Origin: Escherichia phage ZX4221
Sequence record: OR498728.1
Strand: one strand, 5' to 3'
DNA length: 64,000 nucleotides
In this document: positions 10,307-41,283 of the stretch, piece by piece
Position numbering within the stretch: position 1 is the stretch's first letter
Layout: each line of letters opens with the position of its first letter
Made by a program: the position numbers and the translations under genes
The notes under the pieces: generated by a model
Told to the model about the DNA's origin: nothing
Databases searched by the model: none
Seen by the model: the letters and a program-made list of their open reading frames with translations, nothing else

Positions 10307-11722
10307 ATGAGCGAATTATTTAAACATGCGCACCTTCATGCAGGTCGAACTGAAAATGGTGCTGTAAACCATACTTCATCAATGTCTGCTCTGGTAGACT
10401 TCTACAAAGCCGCTGGCTCAAGCCGTAGCAATGTAGAAATCTTACCAGACCTGTTCTACAAAGCTTTGCGTGAGGATGTTGATGTTGCAGTTCGTATTTT
10501 ACTGCATATGCGAGATGTACGAGAAGGTATGGGTGAGCGTAAAGCTTTCCGAACTGTTTTACTTCAAGCGATTGAAGATAAGGTTTTAGAACCTACACAG
10601 GTTCTTCGCATTATGGATAAGATTGCAGAGCTTGGTCGTTTTGATGACTTCAAAATCTTCGTAGGTACTCGTTTTGAGACAGATGCCTTCAAACATTTAG
10701 AAGCAGCATTACTAGACCCTGCAACAGCAGGTTTAGCGGCTAAGTGGTTACCACGAGTAAAACCACGCCACAAACAGTTTGTAAAACGTTTCTGTAAGTT
10801 TGCAAACTTAAGTGAGAAGGAGTATCGCACACTGTTATCTGCACTGTCCGATACGGTTGAGCAAAAAATCTCTGCTAATGAGTTTGGTAAGATTGACTAC
10901 AGCAAGATTCCTTCACTCGCTGCTGCACGTTACCAAAAGCTCTTTAACCGTAAAGATGGTGAACGTTACAAAGCTTATATCGAGTCACTCTCAAAGGGTG
11001 AGGCTAAGATTAACGCTGGTGCTGTTTACCCATACGATGTGATTAAATCTATCAAGTATGGTAATGCAGGTGTTGCTAATGAGCAGTGGAAAGCACTACC
11101 AAACTGGATGGCAGAGGGTGAAAACATCTTGTGTATGACTGATGTTTCAAGCTCAATGTCTTGGGTGAATCTTGGTTCAATCACTGCCCTTGATATTGGC
11201 GTATCACTTGCCTTGTATGTAGCAGAACGCAATACAGGTTGCTTTAAGAATGAGTTAATGGTTTATTCAACAAACCCTCACTTCATCGAACTGAGTGGTG
11301 ATTTGAGAAACCGTCACCGTCAGGTAATGCGTCATGTTGAATATGGTTCAACTAACTTACAAGCAGCTTTTGACCGCATTCTTGAAATAGGTAAGAGAAA
11401 CAACTTGACTCAGAAAGATATGCCAAGTAAGCTTATTATCTTCTCTGATATGGAGTTTAATCAGGTTGATGGTGCAAATGGTCGTACAAACTTTGAAGCA
11501 ATTCAGAGTAAGTACAAAAAAGCTGGATACGAAATGCCACAACTAGTATTCTGGTACTTAGCAAACCGTAATGGTACTTGCGAAGTATCTGTTAAAGATA
11601 ATGGTGTAGCAATGGTATCAGGGTTCTCTCCAGCCACTTTAAAAGCTCTGCTTGGTGGTGAGAAGTTTGACCCAATCAACGTAATGCTCAAAGCAGTAAT
11701 GGTTGACCGTTACATCTGGTAA
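10307..11722 (+). CDS. vWA (MIDAS) domain protein, putatively Ro60/TROVE-like RNA-binding protein
   Basis: 471 aa; C-terminal half has MIDAS-like TDVSSSM ... GSTN ... FSDME; N-terminal TENGAV...ALVDFYKAAGSSR resembles the start of TROVE domains from memory; good RBS; gene is certain, TROVE assignment is inference. Confidence 0.6.
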   Translation: MSELFKHAHLHAGRTENGAVNHTSSMSALVDFYKAAGSSRSNVEILPDLFYKALREDVDVAVRILLHMRDVREGMGERKAFRTVLLQAIEDKVLEPTQVLRIMDKIAELGRFDDFKIFVGTRFETDAFKHLEAALLDPATAGLAAKWLPRVKPRHKQFVKRFCKFANLSEKEYRTLLSALSDTVEQKISANEFGKIDYSKIPSLAAARYQKLFNRKDGERYKAYIESLSKGEAKINAGAVYPYDVIKSIKYGNAGVANEQWKALPNWMAEGENILCMTDVSSSMSWVNLGSITALDIGVSLALYVAERNTGCFKNELMVYSTNPHFIELSGDLRNRHRQVMRHVEYGSTNLQAAFDRILEIGKRNNLTQKDMPSKLIIFSDMEFNQVDGANGRTNFEAIQSKYKKAGYEMPQLVFWYLANRNGTCEVSVKDNGVAMVSGFSPATLKALLGGEKFDPINVMLKAVMVDRYIW

Positions 11723-11830: not shown

Positions 11831-11860
11831 TTGACAACCACTAAAAAATAATGTTAAAGT
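11831..11860 (+). promoter_or_regulatory. Possible second promoter upstream of first tRNA
   Basis: TTGACA at 11831-36 with weak -10 about 17-18 nt downstream. Confidence 0.3.
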
Positions 11861-11886: not shown

Positions 11887-11963
11887 CTCTGTTTAGCTCA
11901 GCTTGGTAGAGCGTTCCGTTTGGGGCGGTAAGGCCGGAGGTTCAAGTCCTCCAACAGAGACCA
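11887..11963 (+). tRNA. tRNA-Pro (anticodon TGG)
   Basis: Hand-folded: acceptor CTCTGTT/AACAGAG, D-stem GCTC/GAGC, anticodon loop TTTGGGG, T-arm GGAGG-TTCAAGT-CCTCC, CCA encoded. Confidence 0.75.
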
Positions 11964-11970
11964 AATTAAT

Positions 11971-12048
11971 GTTCCAGTAGACAAAACGGTAAAGTCACCA
12001 CTCTTTCAAAGTGGATATTTGAGGGTTCAAATCCCTTCTGGAACGCCA
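11971..12048 (+). tRNA. tRNA-Glu (anticodon TTC)
   Basis: Acceptor GTTCCAG/CTGGAAC, anticodon stem CCACT/AGTGG with loop CTTTCAA, T-loop TTCAAAT, CCA encoded. Confidence 0.7.
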
Positions 12049-12055
12049 GTCTTGA

Positions 12056-12128
12056 CAGAAGACCAATTGCAGCAAACTTAATCTTATTCATCTGACACGA
12101 AATCGGACAAAGAAGAGATTTGGTCTGG
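12056..12128 (+). ncRNA. Stem-closed structured element A (CAGAAGACC ... GGTCTGG family), Y-RNA-like candidate
   Basis: 5' CAGAAGACCAA pairs with 3' TTGGTCTGG (7 bp); conserved 5' box CAGAAGACCnnnTnCAGCAA; inner hairpin AATCT/AGATT; directly follows tRNA-Glu. Confidence 0.4.
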
Positions 12129-12139
12129 TCATTAAGAAT

Positions 12140-12216
12140 TGCGGGTATAGAGAAAGGGCGTCTCACATGTCTCATTAGCATGGTATCGGCAGGTTCGACT
12201 CCTGCACCCGCCTCCA
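12140..12216 (+). tRNA. tRNA-Met (anticodon CAT), copy 1
   Basis: T-arm GCAGG-TTCGACT-CCTGC, acceptor TGCGGGT/ACCCGCC with mismatch at pair 1-72, anticodon loop CTCATTA; CCA encoded. Confidence 0.6.
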
Positions 12217-12222
12217 ATTTTG

Positions 12223-12283
12223 CAGAAGACCGTATTCAGCAACAAACTACTTTTTGCGGATAAAAGAAAAAAACACGGTCTGG
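12223..12283 (+). ncRNA. Stem-closed structured element B (same family)
   Basis: 5' CAGAAGACCGT pairs with 3' ACGGTCTGG (7 bp); same 5' box as element A. Confidence 0.4.
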
Positions 12284-12294
12284 CAATGTATTAA

Positions 12295-12371
12295 GGTTAG
12301 GAAGCACATAAGGTATGTGCGGTCGCCTGTTAAGCGAATGGCACAGGGTTCGAATCCCTGACTAACCGCCA
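12295..12371 (+). tRNA. tRNA-Asn (anticodon GTT)
   Basis: D-stem GCAC/GTGC, anticodon loop CTGTTAA, T-arm CAGGG-TTCGAAT-CCCTG, acceptor GGTTAGG/ACTAACC, CCA encoded. Confidence 0.7.
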
Positions 12372-12380
12372 AATTTAAAT

Positions 12381-12468
12381 GTGTCGTTATCCCGTAGATG
12401 GTAGCGGTGGGGACTGTAAATCCCTTGTCATTGAGACTCGGTAGGTTCGACTCCTACACGGCACACCA
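12381..12468 (+). tRNA. tRNA-Tyr (anticodon GTA), long variable arm
   Basis: 88 nt; acceptor GTGTCGT/ACGGCAC, anticodon stem GGGGA/TCCCT loop CTGTAAA, T-arm GTAGG-TTCGACT-CCTAC, CCA encoded. Confidence 0.7.
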
Positions 12469-12474
12469 AATAAA

Positions 12475-12552
12475 GGTTATGTAGTTTAATCTGGTTAAAA
12501 TACTCCCCTGTCACGGGAGATGATGAGGGTTCAAATCCCTTCGTAACCGCCA
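12475..12552 (+). tRNA. tRNA-Asp (anticodon GTC)
   Basis: Anticodon stem CTCCC/GGGAG perfect, loop CTGTCAC, T-loop TTCAAAT, acceptor GGTTATG/CGTAACC, CCA encoded. Confidence 0.75.
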
Positions 12553-12639
12553 AATTATAATAAGTATTTCAAGATGATGTTTTGAGAGGGCTATTTAGCC
12601 CCTCCCTTAAAGAGTTCTTACGAGTATTCTTTAAAGGAG

Positions 12640-12713
12640 CAGAAGACCAAATGCAGCAAGAATGTATGAAATTTCAAGCCAATTTAATTTTGAAAATTTA
12701 AACTTGGTCTGGC
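12640..12713 (+). ncRNA. Stem-closed structured element C (same family)
   Basis: 5' CAGAAGACCAA ... 3' TTGGTCTGG; inner hairpin AAATTTCAA/TTGAAATTT. Confidence 0.4.
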
Positions 12714-12725
12714 TCAACAAATTTA

Positions 12726-12857
12726 CAGAAGACCGTTTACAGCAAAACTTAAACAATCTATTTCTCCGGTAAAGAAAAGGCGAAGGTTCGATTCCTTCAC
12801 TCGGCAGATGTCGAGTTGGTGTAATGGTAGCACTTAAGATGATAAACAACGGTCTGG
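12726..12857 (+). ncRNA. Stem-closed structured element D enclosing a circularly permuted tRNA-like module; Y-RNA (YrlA-type) candidate
   Basis: Outer 8 bp stem AGACCGTT/AACGGTCT; inside, in order: anticodon-like arm TTTCT-CCGGTAA-AGAAA, T-arm GAAGG-TTCGATT-CCTTC, ACTCGGC-A-GAT-GTCGAGT acceptor hairpin, D-arm GTGT-AATGGTA-GCAC. Confidence 0.5.
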
Positions 12858-12860
12858 TAA

Positions 12861-12999
12861 TTATCTTTGTAGATAAGTTATTAAGCTTCCCTGTGAGTAT
12901 GCGACCACAAAGGTGAAAGGGTAGATTCTAGATTTAACCCGAAAAGACACATCGCTACAGACCTTAAGCAAGTCTGGGTAGCTTATCTACAAAGATAAT
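12861..12999 (+). ncRNA. Structured element bounded by a perfect 17 bp inverted repeat
   Basis: TTATCTTTGTAGATAAG (12861-77) and its exact reverse complement (12983-99) enclose ~105 nt with internal hairpins. Confidence 0.4.
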
Positions 13000-13004
13000 T
13001 TAAT

Positions 13005-13080
13005 GGAAGTGTAGCAGAATGGTGATGCGGCAGACTTTTAATCTGACAGGCGATGGGTTCGAATCCCTCCACTTCTACCA
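13005..13080 (+). tRNA. tRNA-Lys (anticodon TTT)
   Basis: Acceptor GGAAGTG/CACTTCT, anticodon loop CTTTTAA, T-loop TTCGAAT with imperfect T-stem ATGGG/CCCTC, CCA encoded. Confidence 0.6.
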
Positions 13081-13084
13081 ATAT

Positions 13085-13161
13085 GGTTCAGTCGCAGATA
13101 AGGTAATGCAGGGGTTTCATAAGCCCTATGAATGTGGGTTCGATTCCCATCTGAACCTCCA
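13085..13161 (+). tRNA. tRNA-Met (anticodon CAT), copy 2 (initiator, elongator or Ile-lysidine not resolved)
   Basis: Acceptor GGTTCAG/CTGAACC perfect, anticodon stem GGGGT/GCCCT loop TTCATAA, T-arm GTGGG-TTCGATT-CCCAT, CCA encoded. Confidence 0.7.
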
Positions 13162-13162
13162 A

Positions 13163-13238
13163 GCTGGTATAGTTAAGAAGGTTATAACACTCCCCTGATA
13201 AGGGAACATCGGTGGTTCGATTCCACCTACCAGTACCA
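13163..13238 (+). tRNA. tRNA-Ile (anticodon GAT)
   Basis: D-stem GTTA/TAAC, anticodon loop CTGATAA, T-arm GGTGG-TTCGATT-CCACC, acceptor GCTGGTA/TACCAGT, CCA encoded. Confidence 0.7.
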
Positions 13239-13253
13239 ATTCCAATAAAGTTG

Positions 13254-13282
13254 TTGACATTGAGATGTGACCACTTTATAGT
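13254..13282 (+). promoter_or_regulatory. Internal sigma70-like promoter within tRNA array
   Basis: TTGACA 13254-59, 17 nt spacer, TATAGT 13277-82. Confidence 0.55.
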
Positions 13283-13574
13283 AACTAAAATACTTCATAA
13301 TATGTATAATTCAAACACCAATACATGAGTGTTAGACGTAACACAATGTGGGGAAATTTGTTGTACATATTCTGAATAGTTTTCGTTGCGTAGCGTCTAT
13401 TTTGCAAACTTAAAATAAATGCAAACGACAATGTTTTTCTGGCAGTAGCTTGATAGGCTAAACACCAGTGAGGTCTTCCAACCCCTCATCAAAGAATTTG
13501 GCGTACTCGCCCACGGTATGATTAATAAGGTGGGCATCTTTAAGGGCTTTTTAAGAGAGTCTTTAAAGATTAAT

Positions 13575-13651
13575 GCACCCTTAGTTCAACTGGACAGAGC
13601 AAATGACTTCTAATCATTGAGTTACAGGTTCGAATCCTGTAGGGTGTGCCA
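13575..13651 (+). tRNA. tRNA-Arg (anticodon TCT)
   Basis: Anticodon stem AATGA/TCATT perfect, loop CTTCTAA, T-arm ACAGG-TTCGAAT-CCTGT, acceptor GCACCCT/AGGGTGT, CCA encoded. Confidence 0.75.
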
Positions 13652-13793
13652 AATAGTTAGCAGATTGCTTAGACGACCTTATCGGGTCTCCGTGTAAGGA
13701 GGTGGTCTGTATCTCATGTTTTCCAGAACATGTAAATAATCTGAGAAGGGGCTTTACAGTGTTGCGAAAATACGGTAAGCTTCGAATTATAGT

Positions 13794-13876
13794 GTGGGAC
13801 GATGTTAAGACTCTAAGGCATGAGCAACGGCCTCCAAAACCGTTTCAAAGGGGTTCAACTCCTCCGTCCCATGCCA
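13794..13876 (+). tRNA. tRNA-Trp-like (anticodon CCA) with atypical extended D-region
   Basis: Acceptor GTGGGAC/GTCCCAT, anticodon arm ACGGC-CTCCAAA-ACCGT, T-loop TTCAACT, CCA encoded; about 8 extra nt between acceptor and D-stem, so canonical fold not achieved by hand. Confidence 0.4.
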
Positions 13877-13889
13877 AAGTCTTATTAGG

Positions 13890-13977
13890 GGTAGGTAGCG
13901 GCTAATGGTAGCCAAACTGTCTTGAAAACAGTTGCCACTGTAGAGATACGGTGAGGGTTCGACTCCTTTACTTACCG
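13890..13977 (+). tRNA. tRNA-Ser (anticodon TGA), long variable arm, CCA not encoded
   Basis: Acceptor GGTAGGT/ACTTACC, 3 bp D-stem, anticodon stem ACTGT/ACAGT perfect with loop CTTGAAA, ~20 nt variable arm, T-loop TTCGACT. Confidence 0.6.
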
Positions 13978-14235
13978 CCTAATAAGATTTTACACCGTCC
14001 ATGCTTGCTCGCATTTTCGGTTTATCCCTCGTGTATTGTCGTACACACTGATAAAGCACCTAGTAGGTGTCACGGAGAAGAGATAATATCAAGCTCTCCA
14101 AAGGTTCTAGTCACCGGATTGAACAAGACTATGCAAAGACCTAAATAGGTCTTTTTAGAGGGCTTCTAAGGTTATTACAGCTTGTTGTGGAACCTTGTTG
14201 CTTAGGTTCTTAGAAGTTCTCTAAAAAGATTTAAT

Positions 14236-14312
14236 GCACCTATAGCCCAACTGGTAGAGGCAGCAGACTTAGAATCTGCTCAGTGTGAGTTCGAATCTCT
14301 CTAGGTGTACCA
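14236..14312 (+). tRNA. tRNA-Leu-type anticodon TAG, class I (short variable arm) architecture
   Basis: 77 nt; acceptor GCACCTA/TAGGTGT, anticodon stem GCAGA/TCTGC perfect, loop CTTAGAA, 5 nt variable loop, discriminator A, CCA encoded. Confidence 0.6.
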
Positions 14313-14319
14313 AATTAAT

Positions 14320-14395
14320 GCAGGTGTAGCAAAATGGTTATGCGGCTGACTCTTAATCAGTAAGACGATGGGTTCAATTCCCTCCACCTGTACCA
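14320..14395 (+). tRNA. tRNA-Lys (anticodon CTT)
   Basis: Paralog of tRNA-Lys(TTT): acceptor GCAGGTG/CACCTGT, anticodon loop CTCTTAA, T-loop TTCAATT with same imperfect T-stem, CCA encoded. Confidence 0.6.
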
Positions 14396-14401
14396 AACAT
14401 T

Positions 14402-14477
14402 GGGGATGTAGTTTACATGGTTAAAACATAAGTTTTGCAAACTTAAGTACAGGGTTCAATTCCCTGCTTCTCCACCA
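14402..14477 (+). tRNA. tRNA-Ala (anticodon TGC)
   Basis: G3:U70 wobble pair present in acceptor stem; anticodon stem TAAGT/ACTTA perfect, loop TTTGCAA; T-arm CAGGG-TTCAATT-CCCTG; CCA encoded. Confidence 0.75.
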
Positions 14478-14483
14478 ATTAGT

Positions 14484-14558
14484 GCATCCATAGTTTAAAC
14501 GGGAAAATTACAGTCTTCCAAACTGAGGTTGAGGGTTCGATTCCCTCTGGATGCTCCA
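14484..14558 (+). tRNA. tRNA-Gly (anticodon TCC)
   Basis: Acceptor GCATCCA/TGGATGC perfect, anticodon loop CTTCCAA, T-arm GAGGG-TTCGATT-CCCTC, CCA encoded. Confidence 0.75.
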
Positions 14559-14565
14559 AATTAAT

Positions 14566-14641
14566 GCTCCTATCGTATAATTGGCTATTACGGTTGCCTT
14601 GTAAGCAACTTATCAGGGTTCGAATCCTTGTGGGAGCACCA
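14566..14641 (+). tRNA. tRNA-Thr (anticodon TGT)
   Basis: Anticodon stem GTTGC/GCAAC perfect, loop CTTGTAA, T-arm CAGGG-TTCGAAT-CCTTG, acceptor GCTCCTA/TGGGAGC, CCA encoded. Confidence 0.75.
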
Positions 14642-14645
14642 ATTC

Positions 14646-14731
14646 AGAGGTCAAGTGAAAGACCGCTGGTGTCAACTGAAGACCGTAACAAATTCCACGG
14701 AGTTGAGTTAGCGGCACAACTTCAGACCTCT
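14646..14731 (+). ncRNA. Structured element E, divergent relative of the CAGAAGACC family
   Basis: Outer stem AGAGGTC/GACCTCT; contains CTGAAGACCGTAACAAATT resembling the family 5' box; nested stems CCGCT/AGCGG and CTGAAG/CTTCAG. Confidence 0.3.
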
Positions 14732-14736
14732 TTCAT

Positions 14737-14811
14737 ACTCGCTTAGTTTATATGGTAAAACATCACCCTTACAAGATGGAGAAAAAGGTTCAAGTCCTTT
14801 AGTGAGTACCA
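14737..14811 (+). tRNA. tRNA-Val (anticodon TAC)
   Basis: D-stem GTTT/AAAC, anticodon loop CTTACAA, T-arm AAAGG-TTCAAGT-CCTTT, acceptor ACTCGCT/AGTGAGT, CCA encoded. Confidence 0.7.
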
Positions 14812-14812
14812 T

Positions 14813-14890
14813 GTTCCAGTATCCCAATTGGCAGAGGATGCAAGCTCAAACCTTGTACTAGTGACGGTTCGAATCCGTCTTGGAACACCA
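14813..14890 (+). tRNA. tRNA-Leu-type anticodon CAA, class I (short variable arm) architecture
   Basis: 78 nt; acceptor GTTCCAG/TTGGAAC, anticodon stem GCAAG/CTTGT, loop CTCAAAC, ~6 nt variable loop, T-arm GACGG-TTCGAAT-CCGTC, discriminator A, CCA encoded. Confidence 0.55.
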
Positions 14891-14895
14891 ATTTT

Positions 14896-14971
14896 GCAGG
14901 ATTAGTTCAAATGGATAGAGCAACAGTCTACGAAGCTGTTAATAGGGGTTCGAATCCCTTATCCTGCGCCA
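14896..14971 (+). tRNA. tRNA-Arg (anticodon ACG)
   Basis: Acceptor GCAGGAT/ATCCTGC perfect, D-stem GTTC/GAGC, anticodon loop CTACGAA, T-loop TTCGAAT, CCA encoded. Confidence 0.75.
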
Positions 14972-14989
14972 GATAAGTAAGAGGAATTT

Positions 14990-15232
14990 ATGCAAACATT
15001 AATCGTCGTTGAACATGAAAATTCCAATAGTATTGAGTTTGTAAGGGTTCCCACTATAGATACCCACATTTTCTTGAAAGTCGGATGGGGATGTGACCCA
15101 ATAAAAGTAGAAAATTTTATTGGTCATTACTTTGGTGGAAGACAACTTAAAAGCGTCAATTTTGAGACAATGTTACCAGAAAACTCAGAAACAAATAATA
15201 ATGTTTATCTCCTTACGAGGATTAGACAATGA
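14990..15232 (+). CDS. hypothetical protein inside tRNA array (80 aa)
   Basis: AAGAGGA Shine-Dalgarno 6 nt before ATG; stop overlaps next start (ATGA). Confidence 0.45.
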   Translation: MQTLIVVEHENSNSIEFVRVPTIDTHIFLKVGWGCDPIKVENFIGHYFGGRQLKSVNFETMLPENSETNNNVYLLTRIRQ

Positions 15233-15786
15233 GATATCTGAAGTATGCTTCATGGATTTTCCTAGCTTTGTTAGACCCATTGGCAGCAACCTTAGCAGTT
15301 ATCTTAGCACCCTTTGTAGTCCCATTCTACAGTGAGAAGAAAGGCCATCTACCTTTTGGATTCAGATGGATGGAGACATATGACAACCCGATTGATGGCG
15401 ATGAAGGTCATATGAAACGATGGGCTAAGATTAGAAAGATTGGTAAGCTCGGTGTCTATATGCAGAGAGTTGGCTGGCTCTGGAGAAACAAAGCTTATAA
15501 CTTCTCTTACCATGTGTTAGGAAGAGATGTAAAAGATGTTACTAAGTGGAAAGGTAATATCAACGTGAGTTCTGACCCTGAAGATAATCAGACAGGTTAT
15601 CTCCTAATGTGGAACAGTAATGCTTGGGGATTATTTGCTTTTATCCCATCAATTAAAATCTTTGGTAAACAATTCTACTGGAGAATTTATGTTGGATGGA
15701 AACTTAAAAGTGTTGTCCCAGAAGAAAGAGCATTCTCAAGGGAAAGAGTTATGTTGGCATTCTTTATTCATCCACTGAGAAAGTAA
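15229..15786 (+). CDS. hypothetical protein with hydrophobic N-terminus inside tRNA array (185 aa)
   Basis: ORF-track ORF; translationally coupled to 14990..15232; N-terminal WIFLALLDPLAATLAVILAPFVVPF looks membrane-associated. Confidence 0.5.
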   Translation: MRYLKYASWIFLALLDPLAATLAVILAPFVVPFYSEKKGHLPFGFRWMETYDNPIDGDEGHMKRWAKIRKIGKLGVYMQRVGWLWRNKAYNFSYHVLGRDVKDVTKWKGNINVSSDPEDNQTGYLLMWNSNAWGLFAFIPSIKIFGKQFYWRIYVGWKLKSVVPEERAFSRERVMLAFFIHPLRK

Positions 15787-15794
15787 AGATTTAA

Positions 15795-15870
15795 AGGGGA
15801 TTAGTTTACAAGGTTAAAACCTCGGTCTTTGAAATCGAAGAAGTTGGTTCAATTCCAACATCCCCCGCCA
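15795..15870 (+). tRNA. tRNA-Gln (anticodon TTG)
   Basis: Anticodon stem TCGGT/ATCGA, loop CTTTGAA, T-arm GTTGG-TTCAATT-CCAAC, A1-C72 mismatch at top of acceptor, discriminator G, CCA encoded. Confidence 0.65.
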
Positions 15871-15872
15871 AT

Positions 15873-15951
15873 GCTCCATTACTCCAATTGGCAGAGAGGC
15901 CAGACTTAAAATCTGTGTTATGTATCGGTTCGAATCCGATATGGAGTACCA
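15873..15951 (+). tRNA. tRNA-Leu-type anticodon TAA, class I (short variable arm) architecture
   Basis: 79 nt; acceptor GCTCCAT/ATGGAGT, anticodon stem CAGA/TCTG, loop CTTAAAA, ~7 nt variable loop, T-arm ATCGG-TTCGAAT-CCGAT perfect, discriminator A, CCA encoded. Confidence 0.55.
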
Positions 15952-15956
15952 AATTT

Positions 15957-16032
15957 AGCGGTATAGCATAACTGGCAATGCAGCAGTCTCTGAAGCTGTC
16001 TTATTAAGGTTCAAATCCTTATGCCGCTGCCA
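15957..16032 (+). tRNA. tRNA-Gln (anticodon CTG)
   Basis: Acceptor AGCGGTA/TGCCGCT, D-stem GCAT/ATGC, anticodon loop CTCTGAA, T-arm TAAGG-TTCAAAT-CCTTA, discriminator G, CCA encoded. Confidence 0.65.
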
Positions 16033-16063
16033 CTTCTAAGGGTTCTTACGAGAGTCCTTAAAT

Positions 16064-16139
16064 GTGGCCTTATCATAAATGGTAATGACCCATGCTGTGA
16101 ACATGGTCTATACGGGTTCAAATCCCGTAGGTCACCCCA
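16064..16139 (+). tRNA. tRNA-His (anticodon GTG)
   Basis: Anticodon stem CCATG/CATGG perfect, loop CTGTGAA, D-stem TCAT/ATGA, T-arm ACGGG-TTCAAAT-CCCGT, discriminator C; no encoded G-1 (preceding base is T). Confidence 0.7.
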
Positions 16140-16145
16140 ATTTAT

Positions 16146-16221
16146 AGTCCAAGTAGCTTATATGGTTAAAGCGCGTGTCTGAAAAACATGAGAAGAGGGT
16201 TCAAATCCCACTGGACTACCA
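16146..16221 (+). tRNA. tRNA-Phe (anticodon GAA), irregular acceptor/linker geometry
   Basis: Anticodon stem CGTGT/ACATG, loop CTGAAAA, D-stem GCTT/AAGC, T-loop TTCAAAT; acceptor pairs only as 6 bp or with a 4 nt linker to the D-stem; boundaries uncertain. Confidence 0.55.
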
Positions 16222-16237
16222 ATTTCAAAGGTGCTTA

Positions 16238-16972
16238 ATGAAAGAGATGACAGAACAAGGTAAGGAGATTTTTAATCTCTTAAAAACCGGTAGAGGGTTT
16301 TCTAATCCCCTTATTACTGGTGCAGCAGTTCTCGGTGGAACCGTAGCTGCCTCTACATCACTTGTAAGCTCTATTAGCTCTGTAACAGACCCTACAATAA
16401 AGGATAAGCTTATTGCTGCTGGACTTACAACAGTTCTGCTTAACAGCTTTACAACGAGTCTGACAAGCACTACATCAACCACTAAGACACTGACAGATTA
16501 TGGTCAAAAGTCCATTGATGAGTTTTCATCACGTATGCAGGTAGCAAAAGGATATTCCAATGTTATGGGTGCAGCAGGAGAACAAGTCGGTTGTACACCA
16601 TTTAGTGGTATTATGGGTGTTGCTACAGAATATGGTCAAAAAGCTATTGACACAATTAACAGTGCACTAGATGGTGTTAATGATGTGTTAAGTGACTTAC
16701 AAGATGCTATTGATGAAGGTCTTGATACTATTTCTGATTTAGCTAACCAAGCTGTTAGCAAGATTAATGAAGGTATCTCGAAGATTACAGCTTATGCAGA
16801 TGAAGTTGTGCAGATGATTGAAGAAGAAGCTGCCCTTATTGCAGAGTACCTTAAAACGAATATCAATGGGTTCTTAGCAGGTATCTTACCAGACTGGTTT
16901 GATGATGCTTGTAAAACTGGTGTAATTGATACTATTGCAACACCAGAAATGAAGAACGCATTACAGAAATAA
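16238..16972 (+). CDS. hypothetical Ser/Thr-rich protein (244 aa)
   Basis: ORF-track ORF trimmed to first ATG with RBS (AAAGG) that does not overlap tRNA-Phe. Confidence 0.5.
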   Translation: MKEMTEQGKEIFNLLKTGRGFSNPLITGAAVLGGTVAASTSLVSSISSVTDPTIKDKLIAAGLTTVLLNSFTTSLTSTTSTTKTLTDYGQKSIDEFSSRMQVAKGYSNVMGAAGEQVGCTPFSGIMGVATEYGQKAIDTINSALDGVNDVLSDLQDAIDEGLDTISDLANQAVSKINEGISKITAYADEVVQMIEEEAALIAEYLKTNINGFLAGILPDWFDDACKTGVIDTIATPEMKNALQK

Positions 16973-16973
16973 T

Positions 16974-17066
16974 GGAAGATTAACCCTAAAAGGTAAGGGA
17001 GCAGTTTGCTAAACTGCCAGTAGCTGAGAAATCGGTGTACCAGTTCAAGTCTGGTATCTTCCTCCA
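16974..17066 (+). tRNA. tRNA-Ser (anticodon GCT), long variable arm
   Basis: 93 nt; acceptor GGAAGAT/ATCTTCC perfect, anticodon stem GCAGT/ACTGC perfect, loop TTGCTAA, T-arm ACCAG-TTCAAGT-CTGGT, CCA encoded. Confidence 0.75.
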
Positions 17067-17070
17067 ATTT

Positions 17071-17146
17071 GAATCCGTGACAGAAATGGCTATGTGCCTG
17101 TCTGCAAAACAGGTTTATAAGGGTTCGAGTCCCTTCGGATTCTCCA
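17071..17146 (+). tRNA. tRNA-Cys (anticodon GCA)
   Basis: Acceptor GAATCCG/CGGATTC perfect, anticodon stem CCTGT/ACAGG perfect, loop CTGCAAA, T-arm AAGGG-TTCGAGT-CCCTT, CCA encoded. Confidence 0.75.
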
Positions 17147-17308: not shown

Positions 17309-17332
17309 GACGGTCTCTGTACCGTCTTTTTT
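17309..17332 (+). terminator. Rho-independent terminator
   Basis: GACGGT-CTCTGT-ACCGTC hairpin followed by TTTTTT. Confidence 0.7.
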
Positions 17333-40717: not shown

Positions 40718-40915
40718 ATGCCTACAATCCTAGCAATTCTTCTAAAAAATCTAGGTAGCTTCTTCTGGAAACTCATTTTATCCCTTCTAAGTGAATACAT
40801 GATTGAGAAAGTGTTCTTTAAGCTTGCAAGATATCTTGCGAGTAAAACAGACACACCTATTGATGATGAGTTCGTAGATAACTTAGAAAAAGCTTTTAAG
40901 GGGGAGAATAAATGA
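40718..40915 (+). CDS. hypothetical small protein with hydrophobic N-terminus (65 aa), possible lysis-associated
   Basis: ORF-track ORF. Confidence 0.35.
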   Translation: MPTILAILLKNLGSFFWKLILSLLSEYMIEKVFFKLARYLASKTDTPIDDEFVDNLEKAFKGENK

Positions 40916-41283
40916 AGTGGCTAGAGGAAGCTTTTAAAAATAATATTGGTGCAATTGTAGTTGGTATTTTTAGTGTTATTGGGATGTATACCACCATGCA
41001 AGTCTCGGATGGTAAGCAAGAAGTGTCTGTCACAACAAAGTTACAGCAGCTAGATAATTATAGCAAATCTAATTACTCAGCTATTCGTGATTTACAGTCT
41101 GACATGAGACTGATTCAGCTAGGGATGGAGAACCAGAAAGTTCAGTTAGAGAATGTTAAGGGTGAGAATGCAAAACTTACTAAGACTCTTGATAAATTCT
41201 CTGACAGTGTGAACAATCTGGCTCAATCAGTATCAGCCTTGCAAGCTATTACTGAAAAGAACACAAAGAATACTGAAAAATAA
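40912..41283 (+). CDS. membrane-anchored coiled-coil protein (spanin- or holin-like candidate)
   Basis: One N-terminal TM (IGAIVVGIFSVIGMYTTM) followed by heptad-like Q/L/N-rich sequence. Confidence 0.4.
   Translation: MKWLEEAFKNNIGAIVVGIFSVIGMYTTMQVSDGKQEVSVTTKLQQLDNYSKSNYSAIRDLQSDMRLIQLGMENQKVQLENVKGENAKLTKTLDKFSDSVNNLAQSVSALQAITEKNTKNTEK

Follow-up and report, generated by a model that had tools for sequence, protein, structure and literature searches.

Two overlapping open reading frames (ORFs), ORF1 of 80 residues and ORF2 of 185 residues, lie within the transfer RNA (tRNA) cluster of Escherichia phage ZX4221 (OR498728.1) and are genuine protein-coding genes. The stretch analyzed, termed the window, is 64,000 nucleotides long and comes from a Felix O1-like myovirus (Felixounavirus). 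ORF2 is assignable by sequence to the DUF7338 family, which refines an earlier note in which neither gene had a recognizable function. With a probability of about 0.4, ORF2 would be an accessory late or lysis factor that acts at the diderm cell envelope, is not the hole-former, and is unrelated to tRNA. This inferred role is the weakest step of the analysis and draws on the predicted membrane anchor, the conserved residues of the soluble domain, and the position of distant relatives between tail-fibre and lysis genes.

Both genes are under purifying selection, which is strong for ORF2. By the Nei-Gojobori method, the ratio of nonsynonymous to synonymous substitution rates (dN/dS) is 0.04-0.10 for ORF2 against its relatives, with a value of 0.05 for one pair whose synonymous sites are saturated, and 0.16-0.30 for ORF1 between its two allelic types. 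ORF1 matches PHROG 14202 over its full length (E=4.9e-39; residues 1-80 on model positions 1-76 of 76). ORF2 matches Pfam DUF7338 (PF24027) with 208.6 bits against a cutoff of 27 (E=7.9e-62; residues 1-184 on model positions 1-176 of 180) and PHROG 2143 (E=8e-81). These hidden Markov model (HMM) matches and the dN/dS values bear out the claim of the earlier note that the frames are two real protein genes. Chance ORFs or a non-coding RNA are ruled out by dN/dS and by an Rfam scan, which gave no match inside ORF1 or ORF2. The GC (guanine plus cytosine) content of the pair is like that of the rest of the genome, and the 1.2-kb segment around it matches 254 phage records, the top one being Salmonella phage SP3_SHan-2021 at 99.3%. 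The features of the locus are as follows.

14896-14971, + strand: tRNA-Arg(acg), upstream flank (ARAGORN; Rfam 59.8 bits)
14977-14983, + strand: Shine-Dalgarno sequence of ORF1, AAGAGGA (from the sequence)
14990-15232, + strand: ORF1, 80 residues, ATG start, soluble, isoelectric point (pI) 5.8, PHROG 14202
15214-15218, + strand: Shine-Dalgarno sequence of ORF2, GAGGA, within the 3' end of ORF1 (from the sequence)
15229-15786, + strand: ORF2, 185 residues, ATG start, pI 9.9, DUF7338 / PHROG 2143, predicted to be membrane-anchored
15244-15330, + strand: part of ORF2 coding for the N-terminal hydrophobic helix, residues 6-34, with conserved P28
15349-15402, + strand: ORF2 motif 1, LP..W..T.DN...GD, residues 41-58 (173-sequence alignment)
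15475-15498, + strand: ORF2 motif 2, W.WRN..Y, residues 83-90 (W83, R86, and N87 in 99% of sequences)
15694-15702, + strand: ORF2 motif 3, GWK, residues 156-158 (alignment)
15795-15870, + strand: tRNA-Gln(ttg), downstream flank, 8 nucleotides past the ORF2 stop (ARAGORN and Rfam)

The main points that the earlier note had read from the letters hold. The ORF1 stop and the ORF2 start overlap as ATGA at 15229-15232, the pair sits between tRNA-Arg(acg) and tRNA-Gln(ttg) by both ARAGORN and Rfam, and the ribosome binding site ascribed to ORF1 is the AAGAGGA found 6 nucleotides before its ATG; the GAGGA of ORF2 is spaced 7 nucleotides from its start. The hydrophobic N-terminus of ORF2 is likewise seen at residues ~6-34. 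The statement that no tRNA enzyme or nuclease is recognizable agrees with Pfam, NCBIfam, PHROGs, and PADLOC, none of which detects such a domain in either protein, and NCBIfam and PADLOC return nothing at all for ORF1 or ORF2.

The DUF7338 family and its predicted fold

ORF2 scores above the gathering threshold of DUF7338 over its full length, has the N-terminal hydrophobic helix, and contains all near-invariant positions of the family. A profile search of 1.84 billion representatives found DUF7338 in at least 889 clusters at 50% identity, 401 of them at E<=1e-10, and the members are nearly all single-domain proteins of 160-200 residues. Proteins 96-99% identical to ORF2 are annotated as hypothetical in many Felixounavirus genomes.

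The protein contains a single strongly hydrophobic segment, with a Kyte-Doolittle 19-residue maximum of 2.16 at residues 9-27, and is very basic (net charge +13). Structure prediction, which the earlier note had recommended, was confident for one of the two genes: the AlphaFold2 (AF2) model of ORF2, from a 31-sequence alignment, has a predicted local distance difference test (pLDDT) score of 94.2 and a predicted template modeling (pTM) score of 0.84, and that of ORF1 is weak (pLDDT 64). The ORF2 model comprises, in order, a 32-residue helix, a helical subdomain (43-96), and a five-stranded antiparallel sheet (106-184). The helix should anchor the protein in the inner membrane. No solved structure resembles the model of the ~150-residue alpha+beta domain, and a profile search against the sequences of the PDB gave no match.

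Across 173 members, with a median identity of 30% to ORF2, the near-invariant residues are P28, L41, P42, W47, T50, D52, G57, D58, W83, R86, N87, and Y90, together with G109, G123, G156, W157, and K158. Conservation is centered on the soluble domain, in its polar and aromatic residues, rather than on the membrane helix; this pattern is expected for a binding or catalytic site and not for a mere hole-maker. The cluster of T50, D52, D58, W83, R86, N87, Y90, W157, and K158 looks like a putative ligand-binding or catalytic site. Family-wide, the domain is basic (median pI 9.4) and contains 6.3% Trp.

Position beside tail-fibre and lysis genes

A clue to the role of ORF2 comes from homologs of 42% identity or less. 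In at least nine independent lineages, these share a strand with lysis genes and stand within 0-2 genes of them, with gaps of 0-100 nucleotides. A holin or holin-like gene follows the DUF7338 gene in three of them: a GTA_holin_3TM-like gene (PF11351, PHROG 3427) and then a GH108 endolysin in L070; Phage_holin_4_1 (3e-20), a GH24 lysozyme, and a protein with a transmembrane domain (TMD) in the cluster L071-L086; and Phage_holin_8 (2e-22), a 204-residue gene, a spanin-like gene, and an integrase in the prophage L095. In L064, a Tfa-like gene precedes DUF7338, which is followed by an 89-residue TMD/coiled-coil protein and a GH24 endolysin (1e-42) whose hydrophobic N-terminus is apparently a signal anchor of the signal-arrest-release (SAR) type. 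The order in L058 is tail genes, DUF7338, GH24, an 84-residue TMD protein, and an Rz-like gene, and in the jumbo phages L060/61/66 it is a 66-residue protein with two TMDs, a 279-residue gene, a GH19 endolysin (PHROG 181, 3e-61), and DUF7338. In Aeromonas phage Aeh1, a gp37-like fibre gene is followed by DUF7338, lysozyme gene e (stop and start 2 nucleotides apart), a TMD/coiled-coil protein, and asiA. The Selenomonadaceae prophage L094 has a tail fibre, Tfa, DUF7338, a TMD protein, a coiled-coil spanin-like gene, and an integrase, with no endolysin recognized. Lastly, L096/97 have a Mu-like baseplate, a tail fibre, Tfa, DUF7338 (overlapping Tfa), a 96-residue TMD protein, a GH108 endolysin, and Rz.

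In smaller and temperate phages, the DUF7338 gene is placed in the late operon, between tail-fibre/Tfa genes and, directly after it, holin, endolysin, and spanin genes of several unrelated families. The holins that it stands with are of at least four types, and the endolysins of three families. A metagenomic protein of 172 residues (P0033) joins the N-terminal half of DUF7338 (residues 3-96) to the C-terminal domain of a tail fibre (Gp53-like_C). This chimera stems either from recombination where a tail-fibre gene meets DUF7338 or from an assembly artefact.

The mechanism proposed for an accessory envelope or lysis factor is as follows. ORF2 would be held in the inner membrane by its N-terminal helix, and its basic, Trp-rich domain would carry the polar/aromatic site. 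With this site it may bind or modify a conserved component of the envelope, irrespective of the holin, endolysin, and spanin set of the phage. Felix O1-like and T4-like viruses have enterobacterial hosts in common, and their homologs are 56-62% identical; identity of this order across unrelated phages fits a conserved host target and not a phage-specific partner. The gene passes horizontally among unrelated phages with common hosts, as an autonomous accessory gene would. In large virulent myoviruses it would have been deposited and exchanged in the tRNA cluster, where homing endonucleases abound and conserved tRNA sequence favors recombination. A fuller version of this scheme is tentative, with the odds against it: DUF7338 may be an unrecognized lysis or late envelope-remodeling component in diderms, with a new fold whose Asp/Arg/Asn/Tyr/Lys-Trp pocket binds or modifies a peptidoglycan precursor, lipopolysaccharide (LPS), or an anionic lipid, works with any holin/endolysin/spanin set, and spreads via tRNA-cluster hotspots.

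Several points weigh against an accessory lysis role. Another 12 lineages show no lysis gene closer than 3 kb to DUF7338; several of these adjoin tail-fibre, Tfa, or baseplate genes, and others occupy replication or miscellaneous regions in jumbo phages. Neither in the window nor in T4-like phages is the gene beside lysis genes. The unit that holds the gene in the window has good sigma-70-like sites (11831-11860, 13254-13282) and, bracketing the array, a terminator-like hairpin (17309-17326), which suggests early expression; the overall promoter count of that scan only matches what shuffled sequence gives. The basic domain could be cytoplasmic, as the K/R residues flanking the helix are balanced (1.2 vs 1.4 in 174 members) and the positive-inside rule gives no call on topology. 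The tail-fibre/lysis junction is also a classic site of unrelated "moron" genes, so adjacency may mirror an insertion site and not a function. Finally, a search of the available literature found no paper mentioning DUF7338 or PF24027.

An alternative is that ORF2 is itself the phage holin, a class III-like protein with one TMD and a large extra-membrane domain, as in T4 T, making the lesion that releases the endolysin. The single N-terminal TMD with a ~150-residue domain resembles T4 T, distant relatives adjoin endolysins of three families, and, as the best argument, the DUF7338 gene of Aeh1 occupies the slot of gene t (37 - X - e - asiA). The Aeh1 order mimics the 37-38-t-asiA of T4, with DUF7338 and e replacing 38 and t; however, a second TMD protein also follows e. 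Seen from the endolysin (Aeh1 locus L005, 4920-6260), gene e is at the T4 t position and is flanked by the DUF7338 gene and a 101-residue TMD/coiled-coil protein. ORF2 is a small phage protein with at least one TMD (the hydrophobic helix, residues 6-34), as holins are, but it is neither next to an endolysin nor the sole plausible hole-former, having tRNA flanks and a rival candidate at 40912-41283. Canonical holins lie between DUF7338 and the endolysin in relatives, and Klebsiella phage PTP25 carries DUF7338 (at 75.9 kb) and a T holin (at 130 kb) in one genome. Moreover, neither sequence nor profile nor fold relates DUF7338 to T4 T, an hhalign comparison with T4 holin T was negative, ORF2 does not belong to the T4 T family (PF11031), and the conservation pattern is unlike that of a holin. 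Altogether, the holin identity is improbable.

Existing annotations bear on the same issue from both sides. The gene is labeled "holin" in the records SLAM_phiST56, P54, HP1, and GEC_vB_B1, and the authors of the Felix O1 paper named no holin with certainty (PMC3185647), which leaves room for ORF2. That paper does not place the DUF7338 gene among its holin candidates (PMC3185647), the HP1 paper takes its holin label from database similarity and calls for experimental verification (PMC9120918), and in the Moogle annotation the "putative holin" is a different gene of 124 residues (gp54) after the tail fibre. The label on the DUF7338 gene is propagated and unsupported, and it probably marks the wrong gene. 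At the end of the tail-fibre operon of the window are a 63-residue membrane protein (40718-40909, +) and a 123-residue protein with a TMD and coiled coil (40912-41283, +), homologous to Moogle gp55 and gp54 at 89% and 92% identity, respectively. TMD and coiled-coil proteins like the latter adjoin DUF7338 or the endolysin in Aeh1, L064, and L096.

Superinfection exclusion or envelope protection offers a second alternative, with comparable roles known for T4 Imm/Sp and P2 Z/fun; exclusion and conversion genes, P2 fun(Z) among them, are placed behind tail-fibre and Tfa genes. ORF2 would in this case be a moron or accessory gene whose product alters or masks an envelope component against injection or lysis from without. 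Such a role is unlikely, though a serious competitor. It is favored by the patchy, horizontally mobile distribution across unrelated phages with common hosts, by the mostly diderm hosts named, by placement directly after tail-fibre/Tfa genes as for P2 fun(Z), and, in Felix O1-like phages, by placement in a probably early, sigma-70-driven unit. Unlike typical morons, however, the gene overlaps Tfa and abuts the holin in several phages, with no room for its own promoter and terminator, and known exclusion proteins are rarely so conserved (889 clusters, invariant polar motif). A PhageMaP gene-essentiality preprint on the Felixounavirus Bas63 describes lysis/membrane genes as mostly dispensable, which also favors exclusion, but it does so at the level of the category and its text gives no score for the DUF7338 gene itself (10.1101/2024.10.10.617714).

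Two other identities were tried and rejected. ORF2 is not an i-spanin (Rz-like), as it has an alpha+beta fold and not a coiled coil, and Rz-like genes co-occur with it (L058, L096); none of the alternative-frame ORFs within ORF2 has a lipobox. An anti-phage defence protein is rejected because PADLOC gave no match for ORF1 or ORF2.

Distribution, the tRNA cluster, and the upstream gene

By tblastn, DUF7338 is present in 564 phage records, including ~220 Felix O1-like genomes. Among T4-like phages it is found in RB43/Pseudotevenvirus, ~175-kb Klebsiella and Enterobacter phages, Dhakavirus-type coliphages, Cronobacter phage S13, and Aeromonas phage Aeh1, and it also occurs in jumbo phages and others. 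A scan of bacterial genomes gave only seven loci, one of them a phage contig, with few prophage contexts. The hosts named in matching records are mostly diderm bacteria, including a prophage in a metagenome-assembled genome (MAG) of the Negativicutes (Selenomonadaceae), and the three monoderm hosts named look like mislabels. The metadata of several Felix O1-like or Ounavirinae genomes are implausible. The 88-kb vB_EcoM_P54 is listed as a Tequatrovirus, the segment compared from "Listeria phage LPML1" has 96% identity to a Hafnia phage, and "Campylobacter phage A132" has a Felixounavirus DUF7338 gene at 97% identity. The host or taxonomy labels of PV390658.1, OK283618.1, and MG065664.1 are likely wrong.

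The tRNA neighborhood is confined to the closer homologs. Those of at least 56% identity have tRNA genes within ~1.2 kb, often on both sides, in every sampled phage except L040, and this placement spans Ounavirinae, Avunavirus, and at least four T4-like groups. The DUF7338 gene lies between tRNA-Asp and tRNA-Ser in Hafnia phage Zyzzx and between tRNA-Phe and tRNA-Met in a 172-kb T4-like type; tRNA-Met is ~0.9 kb 5' of it in RB43 and Klebsiella K14-2, and tRNA-Met and tRNA-Arg are 300 nucleotides 5' in MX01, in the T4 "trna.3/trna.4 ... e.8" region. S13 also has a tRNA context. At 42% identity or less, no tRNA is found within 6 kb, save for a single one ~2.4 kb away on the opposite strand at one sampled locus. 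The flanking tRNA species differ in each lineage, and the arrays are polymorphic for HNH genes and single tRNAs, in part just 5' of the ORF1/ORF2 pair (L002 1591-1706; L013 and L011 ~5981; window 14890-14896): SLAM_phiST56 has an HNH endonuclease gene between tRNA-Tyr and tRNA-Asp, tRNA-Arg(acg) is absent from VpaE1-type genomes, and some relatives have an extra ~109 nucleotides between tRNA-Leu(caa) and tRNA-Arg(acg). The varying flanks and array polymorphism are read as the mark of a plastic region, prone to recombination, in which accessory genes gather and are exchanged, and this argues against a functional tie to tRNA.

A tRNA- or RNA-related role for ORF2 or for the pair, for example as a membrane-tethered, basic RNA-binding protein, is accordingly very improbable. 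The proximity of tRNA genes (within <1.2 kb for all sampled homologs of at least 56% identity but L040, in three subfamilies or families) and the strongly basic domain, +13 here with a family median pI of 9.4, are what such a role would predict. However, the tRNA-free surroundings of the homologs at 42% identity or less, whose recurrent neighbors are lysis and tail-fibre genes, speak against it, as do the flanking tRNA identities that change per lineage, and no RNA-binding, nucleotidyltransferase, ligase, nuclease, or modification domain was detected. Searches of Pfam, PHROGs, NCBIfam, and PDB sequences gave neither protein an HNH, GIY-YIG, or LAGLIDADG domain, nor one of a tRNA ligase, nucleotidyltransferase, or modification enzyme, so a homing endonuclease or tRNA enzyme is also rejected.

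ORF1 encodes a soluble, acidic protein without a hydrophobic segment. Its sequence homologs form only seven clusters, all of at least 73% identity, its AF2 model is beta-beta-beta-alpha-beta, and a profile search against PDB sequences gave no match. Of 23 close relatives sampled, whose ORF2 is 94.6-97.3% identical, 11 have ORF1 and 12 lack it. The 12 relatives without it have a tRNA ending 19 nucleotides before the ORF2 ATG (Arg-acg, or Leu-caa where Arg-acg is also missing), and there ORF2 uses its own AAGAGG or GAGAGG site; ORF1 is therefore an optional gene, inserted exactly between that tRNA and ORF2. The pair is not a fixed unit, and ORF2 clearly functions without ORF1. Translational coupling, as claimed by the earlier note, is possible from the overlap but not required, because ORF2 has its own Shine-Dalgarno sequence and about half of the relatives have ORF2 without ORF1. 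The earlier note had also held that absence from relatives would count against the pair. This does not apply to ORF2, present in ~220 Felix O1-like records at 90% identity or more, and applies by half to ORF1.

The upstream gene is nevertheless not random filler, since it recurs at the same position in Av-05 (an Escherichia phage; Vequintavirinae, Avunavirus). There, inside a tRNA array, the 75-residue Av05_009 overlaps by ATGA the DUF7338 gene Av05_008, which is 80% identical to ORF2. BLASTP gave no alignment of ORF1 with the Av-05 upstream ORF; by Smith-Waterman the pair scores 65-68 against a shuffle mean of 22-24 (z ~10), with none of 2000 shuffles reaching the score, and by this shuffled comparison the similarity is judged real. 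Retention of the ATGA overlap in two phage subfamilies suggests that ORF1 is a modulatory partner of ORF2. ORF1-like genes were not found beside DUF7338 in T4-like or other phages outside the Felix O1-like phages and Av-05.

An acidic 80-residue protein encoded upstream of a basic 185-residue one, with an ATGA overlap and with pair and overlap retained in Av-05, is also the arrangement of a toxin-antitoxin-like or inhibitor-effector pair. The chance of this is slight: obligate co-occurrence is contradicted by the 12 of 23 close relatives with ORF2 intact and no ORF1, ORF1 is not beside DUF7338 elsewhere, and PADLOC and Pfam give no match of toxin-antitoxin type. A toxin-antitoxin system proper is rejected, as ORF1 is dispensable.

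The array itself comprises 26 same-strand tRNAs at 11887-17146 (ARAGORN, Rfam). It holds a third protein gene at 16175-16972 (+), between tRNA-Phe and tRNA-Ser(gct), which matches DUF7217 (E=1e-89) and PHROG 2114 (3e-111) and shows a weak resemblance to coiled-coil or tape-measure-like sequences. Its GTG start as given by the ORF finder overlaps tRNA-Phe (16146-16221); the true start is probably at 16238, and relatives annotate a 244-residue product from an internal ATG. The gaps at 12553-13004, 13239-13574, 13652-13889, and 13980-14235 are unusually long and without credible ORFs. Rfam gives only sub-threshold hits in them, tRNA-like remnants at 12749-12799 and 13796-13870 and a tmRNA-like (transfer-messenger RNA) segment at 13385-13574 (E=1e-3; 16.9 bits against a gathering threshold of 47). 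The Moogle genome paper reports an ARAGORN tmRNA in a relative; ARAGORN found none in the window. The long gaps may contain degenerate tRNAs or novel small RNAs. Immediately 5' of the array, 10307-11722 (+) encodes a 471-residue protein with DUF2828, DUF7788, and VWA domains, the counterpart of Bas63 gp130 by position alone. In the PhageMaP preprint, Bas63 gp130 is described as Ro60-like and countering the Ppl defence system, and some "tRNA" genes are speculated to be Y-RNA-like partners (10.1101/2024.10.10.617714).

Significance and comparison with known systems

The locus itself is ordinary, both genes being on record, as hypothetical proteins, for hundreds of Felix O1-like genomes; what is new is the context analysis of DUF7338 and the doubt cast on its "holin" annotation. 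The probable mislabel matters because Felix O1-like phages are used in the biocontrol of Salmonella and E. coli. A large orphan family, with at least 889 clusters and a confidently predicted new fold, gains a testable context at the tail-fibre/lysis junction. Three unrelated myovirus groups carry the gene in their tRNA clusters, which illustrates cleanly how such clusters serve as sites of accessory-gene exchange. The family is of more interest than the locus, if the lysis link holds experimentally.

Within DUF7338, nothing sets ORF2 apart, as it shares the length, the N-terminal helix, and all motifs. Like other protein genes in phage tRNA clusters, such as T4 segB and trna.2-4 and the HNH genes of Felix O1-like arrays, ORF1 and ORF2 lie on the same strand between tRNAs in a polymorphic region. 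Unlike embedded genes of the HNH or segB type, they have no nuclease motif or domain, and ORF2 is predicted to be a membrane protein. With T4 holin T (Phage_holin_T, class III), ORF2 has in common one N-terminal TMD and a large globular extra-membrane domain. The closest parallels to an accessory role are the membrane proteins that assist lysis, the antiholins T4 RI and P1 LydB and the Mu releasin gp25, which like DUF7338 are small, membrane-anchored, non-enzymatic-looking, possibly dispensable, and encoded with a holin or endolysin. These proteins each act on a specific cognate holin or endolysin, whereas DUF7338 accompanies several sets and moves between unrelated phages, which makes a partner-specific mechanism unlikely.

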